The notes under the pieces were generated by a model. The model was not told the origin of the DNA. It saw only the letters and a list, made by a program, of their open reading frames with translations, and ran no database searches. 59,753 bases of DNA from a virus. The translations under genes were made by a program, and so were the position numbers. Shown here in pieces: positions 9,858 to 38,700 of the stretch. Position 1 is the first letter of the stretch. Each line of letters opens with the position of its first letter. The DNA is taken from the UHGV virus genome UHGV-0209512; one strand, given 5' to 3'.

Positions 9858-10325
9858 TTATTGAATTGAACCGCGATCAATTAACCATTGTTTCGCGTGC
9901 GCTTTAAAAATAATGCGATAGTCATCAAGACTAATCTCCGCGCGGATGGAATCTTTAACTTCGTACCACTGCCACTCGCCATTGCTAAAGACAACTGGAT
10001 TGAGTGGTAGAACAACCTTCCATCCTTTACGTTCTATTTTATACATCAGAACTGGATATCTTCCAAGCTCTTTAGCCGATTGAACAGTCTGCTTCCACCA
10101 TGTGTTCACCTGTGGTGTAGCATGGTTTTTTACTTCAACCGCATGGTGGCATGTATTGCTAATGTCGCAACCACCGACCGCACTTTGATTCTGGTTACGC
10201 TGAGCAATAGGTTTCTCCGGTAACCGCATCCCCAAACACACCCAACACTCGGCATAAATTGCATTAAAGAAATCGCATACTTCCCGCTCACCGCGTTGAC
10301 CTTTAGCGCGAATATTTACTGCCAT
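9858..10325 (-). CDS. Hjc-like PD-(D/E)xK endonuclease (putative Holliday junction resolvase)
   Basis: ORF 9858..10415 trimmed to ATG 10323-10325 preceded by GGAGA; KGQRGEREV and GGCDI ... AVEVKNH resemble archaeal Hjc-type resolvase motifs. Confidence 0.45.
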   Translation of the reverse strand: MAVNIRAKGQRGEREVCDFFNAIYAECWVCLGMRLPEKPIAQRNQNQSAVGGCDISNTCHHAVEVKNHATPQVNTWWKQTVQSAKELGRYPVLMYKIERKGWKVVLPLNPVVFSNGEWQWYEVKDSIRAEISLDDYRIIFKAHAKQWLIDRGSIQ

Positions 10326-10367
10326 GTTTGTCTCCATAACTTTAATGTAAAACACTTCATAAAGAAT

Positions 10368-10394
10368 TTTATATTGAAGTTCTGTTGATCTCAA
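10368..10394 (-). promoter_or_regulatory. Candidate sigma70-like promoter (TTGAGA-15 nt-TATAAA) on the minus strand
   Basis: -35-like TTGAGA (complement of 10389-10394) and -10-like TATAAA (complement of 10368-10373), immediately downstream of the terminator and upstream of the resolvase gene. Spacer is short; by-eye only. Confidence 0.25.
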
Positions 10395-10397
10395 GGA

Positions 10398-10430
10398 ACA
10401 AAAAAGCCCAGGCATAAGGATTCCTGGGCT
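10398..10430 (-). terminator. Rho-independent terminator (minus strand)
   Basis: 8-bp stem AGCCCAGG/CCTGGGCT with 10-nt loop; on the minus strand followed by UUUUUUG. Confidence 0.55.
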
Positions 10431-10742
10431 CTCTTGATTGTCGGATAGCTTACTTTGACTGCCGTCTTCGTCTATCCTGGCCTACTTGTACAGCCTCGCC
10501 AAAGGCTGGTGACGGTTTGGTACATCTGGCGCCGTCGCGTTAAACATCGTTCACATCGTTCAGTAAGTTGCGGGTTTACCCTGTCCGCTCCAGGAAGCCC
10601 AGCGAAAGTAGTTGCTGTAAGGAGGTACAGCTACCGCTTTCAAGGGCTTGAGTTAAGCATCGTTCACTAAGTTAATGTTGTTAAATTGTTAAACCTCGTT
10701 AACTGTGGTTATCTTAAAGGATGCAGTCTTGAATGGCAAGCT

Positions 10743-11048
10743 TCAATTTTGCGCGGTTCCCTTTGCCGCTTTTGGTGCTAAAATGCCACCTCTTAGAAGT
10801 ATTTCAAAACCTTGTACTTCATAAGTTGGGACAATAGCATAGCCCATGATTGTAAGTACAATAGATTCATCCTCACGACGCGGATAATAAATATGACACC
10901 AATGAGGAAAAGCATTGTCGTGACGAATGTCCGCATAAGTTTTATGATCCACCAAAATCTTTTGGATTTGGTTATTGTCCTCATTATTTACATTTTCACG
11001 GATAAGCTCCGCATAAATTGCTTCACAGATAGTATTTACAATGCTCAT
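10743..11048 (-). CDS. Hypothetical protein (101 aa)
   Basis: Intact ORF in the early leftward operon; no motif recognised. Confidence 0.45.
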   Translation of the reverse strand: MSIVNTICEAIYAELIRENVNNEDNNQIQKILVDHKTYADIRHDNAFPHWCHIYYPRREDESIVLTIMGYAIVPTYEVQGFEILLRGGILAPKAAKGTAQN

Positions 11049-11759: not shown

Positions 11760-11984
11760 ATGGTCATGTTAAATAAAGTATATAGCACAATGGGCGCGGA
11801 TTATAAAGTTGTACGTCACCCGCGTACTGGTAAATTTGAAGCATATATCCGTCCAATGGGTGAAGGTTGGATGTATTACGGTACTTATGACGACGCTGAG
11901 CAAGCTTATGAAGAAGCGGAAAGTGCGGCGGAAGCATCCGAAATTATGGCAAGGTACGACGTCGATGATTACTATCTCAACTAA
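11760..11984 (+). CDS. Small acidic protein with AP2-like DNA-binding domain pattern (74 aa)
   Basis: GGAGG RBS 8 nt upstream of ATG; RTGKFEAYIRPMGEGWMYYGTYDDAEQAYEEA fits the AP2 pattern; only rightward gene inside the leftward block, with its own terminator. Confidence 0.5.
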   Translation: MVMLNKVYSTMGADYKVVRHPRTGKFEAYIRPMGEGWMYYGTYDDAEQAYEEAESAAEASEIMARYDVDDYYLN

Positions 11985-11988
11985 CAAT

Positions 11989-12008
11989 AAAGGGCCGAAA
12001 GGCCCTTT
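11989..12008. terminator. Bidirectional rho-independent terminator AAAGGGCC-GAAA-GGCCCTTT
   Basis: Perfect 8-bp stem with GAAA tetraloop, flanked by A-run upstream and T-run downstream; lies between convergent genes 11760..11984 (+) and 12011..14347 (-). Confidence 0.6.
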
Positions 12009-12010
12009 AT

Positions 12011-14347
12011 TTATTTGCTTAAGTCTTTGAAAACACTCTCAATTGACTCGTCTATATACCATCCCAACCCCCTGAAATTACGCTTTAACGCATCCTCACG
12101 TGTGACTGGGACGAGTGCTCCCATATCTACAAGTTGTTTGATAGTGAGGTCTGTTGCAGTACCTGCTCCCATCCTGTGATTCTTGAATGCTGCTAACCCG
12201 TAGGTTCTGCGTGTGATAGTTGCCTTCGGAATAATACCGTCAACTCGCAGCTCCTTACGATCACATGCAATTTTACCGCCAAGATAGTCTTTGCAGACCT
12301 GACAGATAGCCTTCACACGCGTTTCATCATCGCCGCCAATAGTACCTTTTTCCCATGCATTGATCATGATGTCCTGTCCGTGCGTAACAAAATCTACCGC
12401 CCATTGCATGTGATTAGGCTGAACGACAGGATTGATCCAGTTTTCCCCAACTGCTAACAGGGATGCAAGACGCAGAGCTTTAAGGTGCGCACGGTTCCAC
12501 GGCTGACGAATAGCTTCGTCTTTAGTTGCGTTAATGTGTTCATCACATAACAAGTTAAACTCCCGTTCAATCCTTTCCGCTTCAGGGCTTAACTGGACAG
12601 TAACGGTCTGGAACTTTGCCATTGTCACCAACGTGTGGTTAACGAGATGGCAGACCATGTCCTTTAATTGTTGTGGCATTGTGATTTCAGGATTTTCGTT
12701 TGCAGGAACACGATCCCCTTCATATTGCACAATGTGGAAACGGGACAAGAAACCGTCTTCCATCATTTCACGGGTTAATGCTTCAAAGAATGTGTCCGGT
12801 GTTGTTTCGCCCAGCACGCTAAACGCCACCCCGTCCATCGTTTTGGTATTATTAGCCTTATCAGAATATCCGATACCGCCAACAACATCCATAGCACCAG
12901 ATTTTTGATACACATCTGTGATAGTTTGCTTCAGGGTGTAGTTTGCAGTGCCAGGTTGAGCTGTTGCCATACCTTTAATGGTTTTACCGAACTCGCCGTT
13001 AATATTCACAAACGAAGTGTGATCCGCAAAACTTTTACGCAAGGCAGGGCCGGAAGCATAGTTAGTCATGTCTACAAATTCATGCACTTGCGGTAATTGC
13101 TCGCCCACTTGCTTACAAATATAACTGGGCCCAGCGTGAAGCATTTCTTTACCCACACCTGATCGGGCAATAAGCACAAAGTAACCGTTTAACCCTGTGT
13201 TGGTGATAGTATTCCACACCTTGCCGCATACGCCGGATAAGAATGCTAAAGATGCAGTGATTGCAATTTCTTTTACCGGACGCTGCGAGGCCTTGTAGAT
13301 ATACTTCGCAAGCTCACCAGCAAGTCCCGGCGGCCATTCAATAGCTGTTGCATCAATGGACGTACTTTCTGCAACTACTATTTCACCGGACGGGCTGACT
13401 GTGGTTACAGGCGTTTCCGTTACCTGCTGCATTGCACTGTGTGCGGCTTGCATACGGGCAGCGTAATCCCGCGCCAGCGCCGCTACGTTTTCCTGGGCAA
13501 TGCGCTCACGCTCCATACGACCGCGGCACATGCGCAAACAACGGTCAATATGAACATTGTTCTTGTTAGCCTTCTCACGTTTGCCCAGTGCGCTGTAACG
13601 GAACAGACGACGACATTGCTCATTACTTTCTGTGTAGAATGCATACATAGAAATAAGGGCAAGGTCTGCTTCAGACTGGGAAGGGAATCCCATTTCAACC
13701 CATTCGCCATTGAAGAGGCGTGCATACTTATCGCCGTTGTCTGCTTCAAGGGCACGCTGGTGAATGGTTGCATCGTCTTCTACCGGATCTTTTTCTACCA
13801 GTTCAATTTCATATGTCTTGCGCTGAAGATCAATTTCATTCACAAGCATAGTAAGGTAATGATCACGCTCTGCAACTGGTTTGTTATAGACAGGATTACC
13901 CGTGCAGATAATAAAACGCTCCTGACTATAAACCTCGACACCATCACGTCGGCGTCCTTTACCGATATTTCCTCTTAACCACAGGTGGACACCCAAGCCT
14001 GACCGACTTACTTCAGTGTAAGTATCGAACGCAGTCATGATCTGTTCGAAGCGACGCAACTGTTCCGGCGTTGTGTGCTTCTTGGGATCCGGTTCATTGG
14101 TTGCGTTCTTCACATCCAGGTCGATGCAGGTGAACGGGTCTTGCGCAGTAAGCACAAAGCCAATATAAGGTTTGTTGAAATGAGCGGCACAACCTTTGGC
14201 AGCTTCAAACGTCATAAGCATATCCGGATCGGTAACATCCGCAGCCATCAGGCGCCCGATATCGTTGTCCCACACAAGCGGCTTTTTGTCCGCATCGGCG
14301 ACAGCCCATTGTGGGAAAGCTTTAATTTCAGCGGGAAACAATTCCAT
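12011..14347 (-). CDS. Replication protein with N-terminal primase-polymerase-like domain (778 aa)
   Basis: N-terminal region with GFVLTAQDPFTCIDLDVKN resembles prim-pol catalytic motifs; central P-loop-like ARSGVGKE is not a canonical Walker A; adjacent to the AT-rich repeat region. Confidence 0.5.
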   Translation of the reverse strand: MELFPAEIKAFPQWAVADADKKPLVWDNDIGRLMAADVTDPDMLMTFEAAKGCAAHFNKPYIGFVLTAQDPFTCIDLDVKNATNEPDPKKHTTPEQLRRFEQIMTAFDTYTEVSRSGLGVHLWLRGNIGKGRRRDGVEVYSQERFIICTGNPVYNKPVAERDHYLTMLVNEIDLQRKTYEIELVEKDPVEDDATIHQRALEADNGDKYARLFNGEWVEMGFPSQSEADLALISMYAFYTESNEQCRRLFRYSALGKREKANKNNVHIDRCLRMCRGRMERERIAQENVAALARDYAARMQAAHSAMQQVTETPVTTVSPSGEIVVAESTSIDATAIEWPPGLAGELAKYIYKASQRPVKEIAITASLAFLSGVCGKVWNTITNTGLNGYFVLIARSGVGKEMLHAGPSYICKQVGEQLPQVHEFVDMTNYASGPALRKSFADHTSFVNINGEFGKTIKGMATAQPGTANYTLKQTITDVYQKSGAMDVVGGIGYSDKANNTKTMDGVAFSVLGETTPDTFFEALTREMMEDGFLSRFHIVQYEGDRVPANENPEITMPQQLKDMVCHLVNHTLVTMAKFQTVTVQLSPEAERIEREFNLLCDEHINATKDEAIRQPWNRAHLKALRLASLLAVGENWINPVVQPNHMQWAVDFVTHGQDIMINAWEKGTIGGDDETRVKAICQVCKDYLGGKIACDRKELRVDGIIPKATITRRTYGLAAFKNHRMGAGTATDLTIKQLVDMGALVPVTREDALKRNFRGLGWYIDESIESVFKDLSK

Positions 14348-14855: not shown

Positions 14856-15011
14856 ACCTACCTCCTAACAGCACTATACACAATACATACCGGCGCAGCC
14901 ACAATTATTCCACCTGAAGTTATGATGTGAGAGGATTGTTAATATATAACCACATGTGATGGAAAGTTTTGGGTAGGAATAGTTGGTGCTCCACAGTTTG
15001 CGCAATGTGAC

Positions 15012-15052
15012 CGAAAGTTTTGTGAGTTTTGCGAAGTTTTGCGAAGTTTTGT
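15012..15052. repeat. Tandem phased repeats (G/C)GA(A/G)GTTTTG, four copies at 9-10 bp spacing
   Basis: AGTTTT at 15016, 15025, 15035 and 15045 (a further copy at 14965); inverted copy CAAAACTCGCAAAA near 15450. Confidence 0.5.
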
Positions 15053-15242
15053 GGTGCCACTGTTGCTAAAAACTTTAATAAAAACAATAAGTTGGTGCAG
15101 TAAGTTTTTGCGTTTTACCCCAAAACGCATTTTTTACCCTAACACCCAAATCCCGACTGTTAGTAAAAAACGTATATAAATCAATAATATAGATACTAAA
15201 TGAATAGTGAATGGAATGGGTAGAAATCCAAATGATGGAAGT

Positions 15243-15257
15243 GGAATAAATTATTCC
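15243..15257. promoter_or_regulatory. Perfect 15-bp palindrome GGAATAA-A-TTATTCC (candidate operator)
   Basis: 7-bp arms around a single central base, read directly from sequence. Confidence 0.45.
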
Positions 15258-15525
15258 TACTTGATAGAATAATGGAATCGGTACTCCAGAGCGCAAAAAC
15301 CTAAAACTTTCAGTCAACAGACTAAAAACGGATAGAAACTAAAAGTTAATAAGTAATACCATAAATATATATAAAATAAGGATTTATTAGTAATGTATAT
15401 AGTACCTATTTGTATTATTTGAATGTTTTTGGGTCATTGTTAAAAAGTCCCAAAACTCGCAAAAAGTGAAAGAATACAATTCGTGACAGGATTGTTAATG
15501 GAATAAGGTGTATGGATATACAGTA

Positions 15526-15570
15526 TTATTCCAGATTCCGGAATAATTGGAATAATGGAATAAATTATTG
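15526..15570. promoter_or_regulatory. Second cluster of the GGAATAA/TTATTCC motif (inverted repeat plus near-palindrome)
   Basis: TTATTCC (15526-15532) and GGAATAA (15540-15546) around palindromic ATTCCGGAAT; then GGAATAA-A-TTATTG at 15557-15570. Confidence 0.45.
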
Positions 15571-15684
15571 AACTATTGTGATCGGAAGGTATATCAAGCT
15601 ATAATGCGCTTAATCGCGGGATATTGGAGGAGGACTTTATTGCGCGGTTAACCGGACCAGTAGGAGGACTGGCCCGGAAGTAGT

Positions 15685-38115: not shown

Positions 38116-38700
38116 ATGCTCACTTGGCCCGAAGAGCTTAGACCATCAGAAATGGAATGGTATTTAGTCTCAAACGCTGTAGAATTTACAAGCCCCTTCA
38201 ATGGGGCTTCCCAAACTGTGTCCTATCCAGGATCACGATGGGAAGCAACATTAACTTTTAACAATTTAAATGACTGGCAATCAAGAAAGCTTGAATCAAC
38301 ATTAGCTAAGCTTGACGGTAAAGCTGGTCGAATTACGCTTCAAGATTTTGGTCGTTGGGGTCGTCCGCCAATGGGATCACCTGTGGTTAATGGTGCTAAC
38401 AATACGGGGACAACTTTATCCACTAAAGGCTGGACACCTAATAGAAAGGTCTTATGGGAAGGGGATTACATTGCAGTAAACAATGAATTAAAATTAATAA
38501 CGGAAGATGCTTGGAGTGATGATTCCGGTAACGTGATTCTAAATATAGCTCCTATGTTAAGAAGCATCCCTCCAAACGGGGCTAAGATTGAAACTCAGAA
38601 ACCACAAGGTGCTTTTCGCTTAGCAGAGAACACTAACGGGGTTAAACGTCAACCTGCATTCAATAACTCCTTTACTTTAAAATTTTCGGAGGCGTTTTAA
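38116..38700 (+). CDS. Minor tail protein (lambda M-like position)
   Basis: 194-aa ORF right after tape measure. Confidence 0.45.
   Translation: MLTWPEELRPSEMEWYLVSNAVEFTSPFNGASQTVSYPGSRWEATLTFNNLNDWQSRKLESTLAKLDGKAGRITLQDFGRWGRPPMGSPVVNGANNTGTTLSTKGWTPNRKVLWEGDYIAVNNELKLITEDAWSDDSGNVILNIAPMLRSIPPNGAKIETQKPQGAFRLAENTNGVKRQPAFNNSFTLKFSEAF

Follow-up and report, generated by a model that had tools for sequence, protein, structure and literature searches.

Direct repeats in an early-region gap of a Seuratvirus genome as part of a putative stand-alone structured RNA gene

Phages encode regulatory RNAs such as the antisense RNAs P1 c4 and P4 CI (Rfam C4 family) and the OOP RNA of lambda, in which exposed sequences complementary to a ribosome-binding site (RBS) block translation or transcription. 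The hairpins of Staphylococcus RNAIII and RsaE belong to small RNAs that present C-rich, anti-Shine-Dalgarno (anti-SD) sequences in loops. Type III antitoxins (ToxI-like) are arrays of tandem 34-45-nt units upstream of an endoribonuclease toxin gene, the origin iterons of phage P4 (TGTTCACC) are bound by the P4 primase-helicase, and put of HK022 comprises two stem-loops acting in cis on RNA polymerase. Among virulent coliphages, known non-coding RNAs are few, and annotations of Seuratvirus and of the subfamily Queuovirinae as a whole include none. In addition, the antitermination element boxA sits upstream of rRNA and CRISPR arrays (PMC7665894). Here we analyze the virus genome UHGV-0209512 (59,753 nt; hereafter the window, on which all positions are numbered), in which an intergenic gap of the early region carries direct repeats that probably belong to a structured RNA gene.

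We assign a probability of about 0.6 to the reading that the repeats are part of a stand-alone, early-expressed, structured non-coding RNA gene of ~305 nt, which would run on the minus strand from ~10704 to ~10399 and act in trans through exposed loops. The existence of a structured transcript is in itself likely, judged from sequence signals; its action through exposed loops is a far more tentative proposal. The locus shows the generic features of a small-RNA gene, namely a bracketing predicted promoter and terminator, covarying structure on the transcribed strand and no conserved reading frame. The first-pass annotation had offered protein-binding iterons or a structured RNA as two options for the repeats. 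The promoter and terminator kept in four lineages, the covarying stems and the better folding of the sense strand favor the structured RNA, whereas the unphased distances between the repeats (9, 104/113 and 36 bp), which are spacers in the predicted RNA, speak against iterons. The element most likely represents a new, genus-restricted family of accessory phage small RNAs.

In kind, the element resembles the stand-alone phage regulatory RNAs and the small RNAs with loop-presented anti-SD sequences, and it is a member of no described family among those tested. Like the C4 and OOP RNAs, it is a short non-coding early-region transcript (here predicted) with its own promoter and terminator. However, it is about four times longer and has several domains, with no Rfam match, no complementary phage target found and no pointer to RNase P processing. 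Similar to RNAIII and RsaE, one hairpin shows a CCUCC-type loop able to pair with a GGAGG RBS, and this loop is more constrained than its stem. Nevertheless, sequence, host group and size are unrelated to those RNAs, and the loop, which reproduces the 16S rRNA 3' terminus in full over 9-10 nt, is missing in the Hafnia relative. The locus shares with ToxI arrays the succession of promoter, repeat-containing RNA, terminator and downstream gene, as well as a repeat copy number that varies between phages. Compared to these arrays, the repeats here measure 9-16 nt and are parted by ~100-nt structured domains, and the downstream gene is variable (PDDEXK/RusA-like in the window) and not ToxN-like.

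The window is a complete or near-complete genome of Seuratvirus (subfamily Queuovirinae), with Escherichia phage slur01 as the closest relative. A 601-bp query around the locus matched 35 phage records, 34 of them at 91.7-97.2% identity and the exception, Salmonella phage STP-SP5, at 76.7%. All genes flanking the locus lie on the minus strand. The gap had been delimited as 312 bp, which is too short, for these 312 bp begin only past the terminator and the true non-coding gap extends over ~417 bp (10326-10742). The homologous RusA-like gene is annotated from the position equivalent to 10325, and the mechanical open reading frame (ORF) reaching 10415 exceeds the annotated homologue in length.

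Within this gap, a sigma-70-like promoter and an intrinsic terminator enclose the element on the minus strand (Table 1), and a transcription start near 10704 is predicted from the position of the -10 hexamer. The minus-strand terminator was recovered by inverted repeat and fold, in agreement with the first-pass annotation. The consensus terminator scan did not list it, presumably because its loop has 10 nt and the scan maximum is 8. The candidate promoter reported next to the repeats is also present, but it is one of two minus-strand promoter-like sites rather than the only one. As the second promoter follows the terminator, the RNA would be an insulated unit. All these promoter and terminator assignments are consensus predictions.

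Four diverged lineages show the same order of promoter, RNA, terminator and promoter, with terminators of three mutually unrelated sequences. STP-SP5 has a promoter that matches the consensus better (TTGACA-17-TAATAT) and the same terminator. In phage ECP2304, identity is 98-99% over the RNA body, but there are four changes within the 15 nt surrounding the -35 hexamer, which leave a promoter in place (TTGACG-17-TAAGAT). In the distant Hafnia phage yong3, the promoter is TTGCAA-17-TAAGAT, the terminator represents another of the three sequences, and TTGCAA-18-TATAAT forms the downstream promoter. In the SA80RD/ΦDruSM1/OddieOddie type, the 3' domain differs, and an equidistant but unrelated terminator (GCGCAGCG...CGTTGCGC and T7) is followed by an annotated promoter and an inserted HNH gene. 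The re-creation of promoter and terminator with different sequences would be hard to explain unless a discrete minus-strand transcript matters. The absence of a credible ORF, as stated before, holds: there are only ORFs of 21-71 aa, the frames of which are broken by indels of 1, 2, 3 and 8 nt in STP-SP5. In the database records, different annotators call different short ORFs on both strands, and recognition of an RNA gene would correct these inconsistent "hypothetical protein" calls.

The secondary structure was modeled with RNAalifold and curated by hand on an alignment of 10 distinct sequences (A3). The resulting model is compact and comprises two domains, invariant loops, a loop with the anti-SD sequence and, at the repeats, a slot for variable modules. 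In this alignment, 90.8% of the cells are paired and 15 pairs show changes on both sides, compared to 3.9±1.4 in 500 shuffles (0 of 500 reached 15) and 2-6 after the partners were slid by 1-3 columns. Changes on both sides affect three of the six pairs of P1 and four of the 14 pairs of P2. The P1 helix AAGCCC/GGGCUU turns into GGGUCU/AGACCU in STP-SP5, whereas in yong3 the P4 helix GACGG/CCGUC turns into GAGGG/CCCUC and the P5 helix CAGCCU/AGGCUG into CAACCC/GGGUUG. One otherwise near-identical sequence (L027) has a single C-G to U-A switch in P1, and the single changes of P6 in Seurat and ECP2304 give G-U wobbles in the sense orientation. In the minus sense, 22 cells are G-U compared to 8 that are A-C. 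Moreover, the folding z-scores of the sense strand in three lineages are -3.27, -2.40 and -2.18, compared to -1.28, -1.15 and -0.21 for the antisense strand.

The loops of P4 and P5, CGCCAGA(U/A)GUACCAAA and UUGGCG, respectively, are unchanged in yong3 despite the altered stems. They are mutually complementary (CGCCAG/UUGGCG), which suggests a kissing contact, the invariance of which precludes a covariation check. A possible H-type pseudoknot CCUG/CAGG by P3 is likewise invariant and hence a candidate without covariation signal. In yong3, a second hairpin with a CCAGAUUCUUACCAAAG loop is found where domain 1 would be.

Table 1. Predicted features of the repeat locus and its flanking genes, in order of minus-strand transcription
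Feature	Position	Strand	Remarks
Prim-pol/DUF3987 primase-helicase	12011-14347	-	followed by several small ORFs
101-aa ORF	10743-11048	-	upstream of the gap
Sigma-70-like promoter of the RNA, TTGCCA-17-TAAGAT	10739..10711	-	from scan; begins 4 nt past the stop codon of the 101-aa gene
5' leader, A/U-rich, apparently unstructured	10652..10704	-	five UUAAC; repeat copies 3 and 2; UUUAACAAUUUA at 10682-10693
Domain 1, P1 (AAGCCC/GGGCUU) closing the long hairpin P2	10595..10649	-	P1, 10644-10649 with 10595-10600; P2, 10626-10641 with 10604-10619
P3, small hairpin (GCGG/CCGC)	10570..10594	-	stem within 10570-10588; one C-G to U-A double change in STP-SP5
Inter-domain spacer	10539..10563	-	tandem CUGAACGAUG-UGAACGAUG and repeat copy 1 GUGAACGAUGUUUAAC (10539-10554); GAACGAUG spacers
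Core P4, GACGG[CGCCAGAUGUACCAAA]CCGUC	10511-10536	-	part of the universal core 10491..10536
Core P5, CAGCCU[UUGGCG]AGGCUG	10491-10508	-	part of the universal core; the two hairpins are 2 nt apart
P6 hairpin (GGAUAG/CUAUCC), large loop	10443..10477	-	3/6 pairs changed on both sides
Intrinsic terminator, AGAGAGCCCAGG ... CCUGGGCUUUUUUG	10434-10399	-	GCCCAGG/CCTGGGC stem, 10-nt loop, then T6 (stem and T6, 10399-10436); from inverted repeat and fold
Second promoter, TTGAGA-17-TAAAAT, for the RusA-like/PDDEXK nuclease gene	10394..10366	-	from scan
RusA-like/PDDEXK nuclease gene	9858-10325	-	downstream of the gap; followed by dUTPase and others

The direct repeats that had drawn attention to the gap are real, yet the most conserved element is the core at 10491-10536, which had not been singled out. 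The two 16-bp copies occur where they had been placed, GTTAAACATCGTTCAC at 10539-10554 and GTTAAGCATCGTTCAC at 10652-10667 (15 of 16 positions identical), as does the tandem duplication of CATCGTTCA (10545-10553 and 10554-10562). The third, diverged copy GTTAAACCTCGTTAAC (14/16) exists as well, but at 10688-10703, one base left of the reported 10689-10704. A pair of 16-mers with 15 matches appeared in none of 300 dinucleotide-preserving shuffles of 10431-10742, the best of which reached 14, twice. The genome-wide motif search that the first-pass annotation had called for, allowing up to three mismatches, gave four occurrences in 59.7 kb, three of them in the gap. Tandem-repeat detection at the locus reported only one repeat, 9 nt in 2.1 copies.

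In the RNA sense, the repeat consensus is GUGAACGAUGYUUAAC, and the repeats occupy the single-stranded leader and spacers immediately 5' of each folded domain. Copy 3 (GUUAACGAGGUUUAAC) is at the extreme 5' end of the predicted transcript, copy 2 (GUGAACGAUGCUUAAC) lies 3 nt ahead of P1, and CUGAACGAUG-UGAACGAUGUUUAAC ends 2 nt ahead of P4. Three of the four minus-strand occurrences of GAACGATG in the genome fall at this locus. In addition, TTAAC is present six times in 175 nt, compared to 0.37 expected, which is its densest cluster in the genome on either strand. Five UUAAC fall within the first 59 nt of the predicted RNA, and the pentamer spacings are 10, 8, 9 and 19. The cluster has four copies in yong3 and three in STP-SP5, the latter of which retains the repeat arrangement. 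The motifs of yong3 differ yet also repeat (ACGUUAACAAG twice), and UGAAC(G/U)AUG stands directly 5' of the first hairpin in both yong3 and the window. The spacer is a hot spot, with three tandem 9-mers in ΦDruSM1; copy number varies, and modules are gained and lost at the repeats. The motif may serve in protein binding, processing or recombination. Origin of the repeats by tandem duplication of a ~110-nt unit was rejected, as beyond the 16-mer 202 of 2000 shuffles score equally. In a metagenome contig of a Seuratvirus relative (ERZ1026901 NODE-154; L025, 1137-1245), a GC-rich, self-folding insert of 90 nt is located exactly between the two 9-mers of the spacer, and this insert has no match in the phage database.

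Among E. coli Seuratviruses, the RNA is 97-99.8% identical, compared to ~54% for the adjacent 101-aa protein in most of them. Against STP-SP5, the 3' half of the RNA shares 86-88% identity per 100 nt, the top of the local range, whereas against yong3 only the P4-P5 core (10536-10491) and parts of P6 align and the flanks are unalignable. A covariance model of the core (R1) scored 144 bits for a single copy in the window and 103 bits for a single copy in yong3; no other match was convincing. A metagenome scan added eight further Seuratvirus contigs. To find homologues beyond Seuratvirus, IMG/VR was scanned with exact and degenerate patterns, which returned only Seuratvirus contigs and stemless chance matches; the core was not found in the scan of GTDB genomes, and E. 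coli genomes and plasmids had no match to the element. Rfam 15 gave no gathering-score match over the whole window, C4 antisense, preQ1, 6S, tmRNA and group I/II introns included. At E<=10 on 10250-10900 it gave four matches of only 10-14 bits, compared to gathering scores of 60-270. ARAGORN found no tRNA or tmRNA gene in the window.

We propose that the RNA may act in trans through its invariant exposed loops, ACCUCCUUA of domain 1 together with CGCCAGAUGUACCAAA and UUGGCG of the core. These loops would pair with the RBSs of mRNAs or titrate an RNA-binding factor, and the repeated linker motif might serve as a recurrent protein-binding or processing site. Should it target translation or titrate a host factor, the RNA would represent a new family among the few regulatory RNAs of lytic phages. 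The apical loop of P2, ACCUCCUUA (10618-10626) followed by C, is identical at 10 of 10 positions to residues 1534-1542 of 16S rRNA plus the next base, which form the 3' end with the anti-SD. Taken alone, this match carries modest weight (BLAST E 0.44 against 1.9 kb of rrn sequence). STP-SP5 retains the loop without change on a stem altered at no fewer than eight positions, and a functional site is plausible given that the sequence is displayed in a loop and selectively conserved. In the plus-strand reading, UAAGGAGGU, no start codon follows.

The only other perfect TAAGGAGGT in the genome (48875-48883, plus strand) serves as the RBS of a 67-aa ORF (48889-49092) that closes the run of plus-strand late genes. 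Its perfect complementarity to the anti-SD loop makes this site a possible target, albeit one indistinguishable from an ordinary strong Shine-Dalgarno sequence. A 25-nt match at 38255 was rejected as an antisense target, since it lies in the same sense inside a tail gene and is not complementary. The sequence there, GCAACATTAACTTTTAACAATTTAA (38245-38272, plus strand), contains two neighboring 12-13-nt segments of the leader, permuted but in the same sense, probably by chance. A scan of GTDB genomes with a 16-mer of the P4 loop was uninformative, the at least 120 matches listed being from unrelated taxa with no Enterobacterales among them. Likeness to 16S helix 45 beyond the anti-SD was rejected as well, for it is not conserved in STP-SP5 and its 7-8-mer matches are at chance level. 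CsrA-type GGA enrichment was dropped, as ~4-5 GGA in 316 nt, counted by eye, is about the chance number.

The leader also resembles rRNA operon sequence. Its 12-mer UUUAACAAUUUA is identical at 12 of 12 positions to the 3' half of E. coli rrn boxA and the adjoining spacer (BLAST E 0.028; 3 of 1000 shuffles reach it). As with boxA of rrn and lambda, these contiguous bases are near the 5' end of an untranslated transcript (here predicted); however, the 5' GYUC of the consensus is absent from the leader, and yong3 has no match to the 12-mer. The gamma-proteobacterial boxA consensus is GYTCTTTAANA, and a C4T/T6C double mutation abolished the association of SuhB at the suhB boxA (PMC5725501). Membership in boxA was rejected: GAGGTTTAACA matches seven of the 10 specified positions and fails at positions 2-4, with G at position 4 instead of C4. 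The leader of yong3 copies residues 1498-1508 of 16S rRNA (UAACAAGGUAA). It is conceivable, though unlikely, that the RNA is a decoy mimicking pieces of the host rRNA operon transcript, namely the anti-SD loop, the rrn boxA/spacer-like leader and, in yong3, 16S 1498-1508. Such a decoy could block SD-led translation of chosen messages, or instead absorb a host factor or toxin that recognizes the 16S 3' minor domain or the rrn leader. Candidate clients would be an rRNA-targeting endoribonuclease, assembly factors of the Era or KsgA type, or Nus factors, and the RNA would then be a new kind of phage takeover or counter-defence RNA.

Several points weigh against a stand-alone RNA gene acting in trans. 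The transcript, its ends and its abundance are predictions from the DNA, and the repeats could act additionally, or instead, at the DNA level. The covariation comes from few lineages (the E. coli type, STP-SP5, yong3 and the 3' domain of the SA80RD type), and the shuffle control ignores their relatedness. The anti-SD loop is absent from yong3 and thus cannot be a universal function, and complementarity of the phage genome to the RNA does not exceed chance, consisting of 10-11-mers only. Moreover, deletion of P4-P5 is viable, with no phenotype listed on a defence panel. Seuratviruses are widely used in defence-system screens (BASEL collection, ΦDruSM1 knockout library), and single-ORF deletions were built in the Seuratvirus ΦDruSM1 by Ojima et al. 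(bioRxiv 10.1101/2024.04.14.589459). In their "PH_ORF65" primers, GTGAACGATG abuts CCGGAAATAAGG, by which the P4-P5 core is lost (67 nt) and the repeats are left, and the published deletion can be re-read as a deletion of the RNA core. Ojima et al. list this mutant among those obtained and record no change in defence sensitivity for it (bioRxiv 10.1101/2024.04.14.589459). Its recovery indicates that the core is dispensable for plaque formation on the laboratory host; the RNA is accessory in this sense. The same study suggests that non-coding nucleic acids might underlie some of its unexplained results.

Alternatively, the repeats might be DNA iterons of a replication origin or another protein-binding array, in which an initiator such as the neighboring primase-helicase binds GTTCAC/GTTAAC repeats and transcription is incidental or origin-activating. 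Similar to the origin iterons of phage P4 (ori/crr), plasmids and lambda, the short GTTCAC-like direct repeats cluster beyond chance 1.3 kb from a primase-helicase gene, amid replication and recombination genes. They adjoin an A/T-rich stretch (34% GC, 10650-10750), which coincides with the promoter and leader of the putative RNA. Although yong3 and the window have different repeated motifs, each genome repeats its own, which would fit such an array. However, the irregular start-to-start spacing given above lacks regular helical phasing, and around the repeats the sequence covaries in the manner of an RNA, with G-U pairs on one strand. Phages whose primases are only 77% identical have a near-identical gap, which thus does not co-vary with the primase type, and the primase, an NrS-1-like prim-pol with DUF3987, has no Pfam match to the P4 alpha-type origin-binding domain. 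The 67-nt deletion abutting the repeats is viable, with the repeats themselves intact in the mutant, and the non-coding region 14860-15600 at the GC-skew minimum is more origin-like. Taken together, iterons appear improbable. A cis-acting leader or 3'-UTR (untranslated region) element is also unlikely, whether as an attenuator, as a put-like or boxA-Nus-like antitermination signal that sets read-through into the RusA-dUTPase genes, or as Rho protection of an untranslated transcript. It would fit the position inside a co-oriented early gene string with a strong terminator at the end, the 12-nt leader match to rrn boxA/spacer, and the two core hairpins, the close spacing of which is superficially like HK022 put. 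Nevertheless, the leader fails the boxA consensus and yong3 lacks the 12-mer, as described above, and the promoter after the terminator in all lineages makes read-through unnecessary for the downstream gene. Nor is this gene constant among relatives, where a RusA-like gene, a 100-aa ORF or an HNH endonuclease gene lies 3' of the element.

The locus could also be a functionless mosaic junction, composed of slippage products or of scars from homing endonucleases and module exchange, and conserved merely by recent common ancestry. The variable number of 9-mers, the HNH genes inserted beside the element and the replaced 3' part in some relatives, the mosaic upstream gene with its breakpoint near 10837 and the core deletion without a listed phenotype would all agree with this. 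Such a junction would hardly maintain six helices by compensatory changes across lineages 77-79% identical or less, keep loops invariant in yong3 where the flanks are unalignable, or re-create promoter and terminator with different sequences, and we regard it as quite improbable. Least credible of all is a small protein gene, encoded by the 21/29-aa minus-strand ORF (PH_ORF65 of ΦDruSM1) or by a plus-strand ORF of 53-71 aa (records of BASEL and KS phages). Annotators have called such ORFs, and the repeats contain AUG. However, no ORF has a Shine-Dalgarno sequence at the right distance, the frames are interrupted by 1-/2-nt indels in STP-SP5 and, in the SA80RD type and yong3, through the replacement of domains, and the ORFs on the two strands are mutually inconsistent.

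The surroundings of the putative RNA gene vary among relatives. An HNH endonuclease gene lies directly 3' of the RNA in some Seuratviruses, at 1390-1872 of the SA80RD locus (L017) and 1361-1873 of the ΦDruSM1 locus (L018). In both phages, the 3' domain and terminator of the RNA (left of ~10488) are replaced by diverged versions, which may reflect co-conversion beside a homing endonuclease. The 101-aa gene upstream is mosaic, with 94% identity to slur01 and ~54% protein identity to most other Seuratviruses. Its last ~95 nt and the downstream RNA share >95% DNA identity; the recombination breakpoint lies near 10837. Further upstream, the 778-aa "primase" joins an NrS-1-type prim-pol helix-bundle domain to a DUF3987 helicase-like region. 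Within the genus, this protein occurs as two sequence types (99% and 77% identical), and the RNA locus is constant.

A lone plus-strand gene of 74 aa (11760-11984) shares PHROG 22269 and its position with ORF65 of ΦDruSM1. Ojima et al. (bioRxiv 10.1101/2024.04.14.589459) identified this ORF65 as an anti-hhe gene, the deletion of which also weakened escape from Druantia type I. A terminator-like hairpin follows the 74-aa gene at 11986-12011 in the plus-strand scan, and Seurat and SA80RD have an equivalent terminator annotated for both strands. The region 14860-15600, which lies upstream of the primase operon (~740 bp, no convincing ORFs, at the cumulative GC-skew minimum), contains GAAAGTTTTG twice and a 10-bp tandem repeat AAGTTTTGCG in 3.8 copies (15015-15051). 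It is a better candidate for an origin or early regulatory region than the repeat locus.

A gene common to the whole subfamily was considered and rejected, since the sister genus Nonagvirus has at the corresponding position another conserved element, which is shorter and shows no sequence similarity. In Nonagvirus JenP1 (L029, 10656-10843), the gap upstream of the RusA-like gene contains this 187-bp non-coding element, which forms a hairpin and a strong terminator just before the RusA RBS. It is 95-100% conserved in 18 records and may represent a second unannotated RNA.

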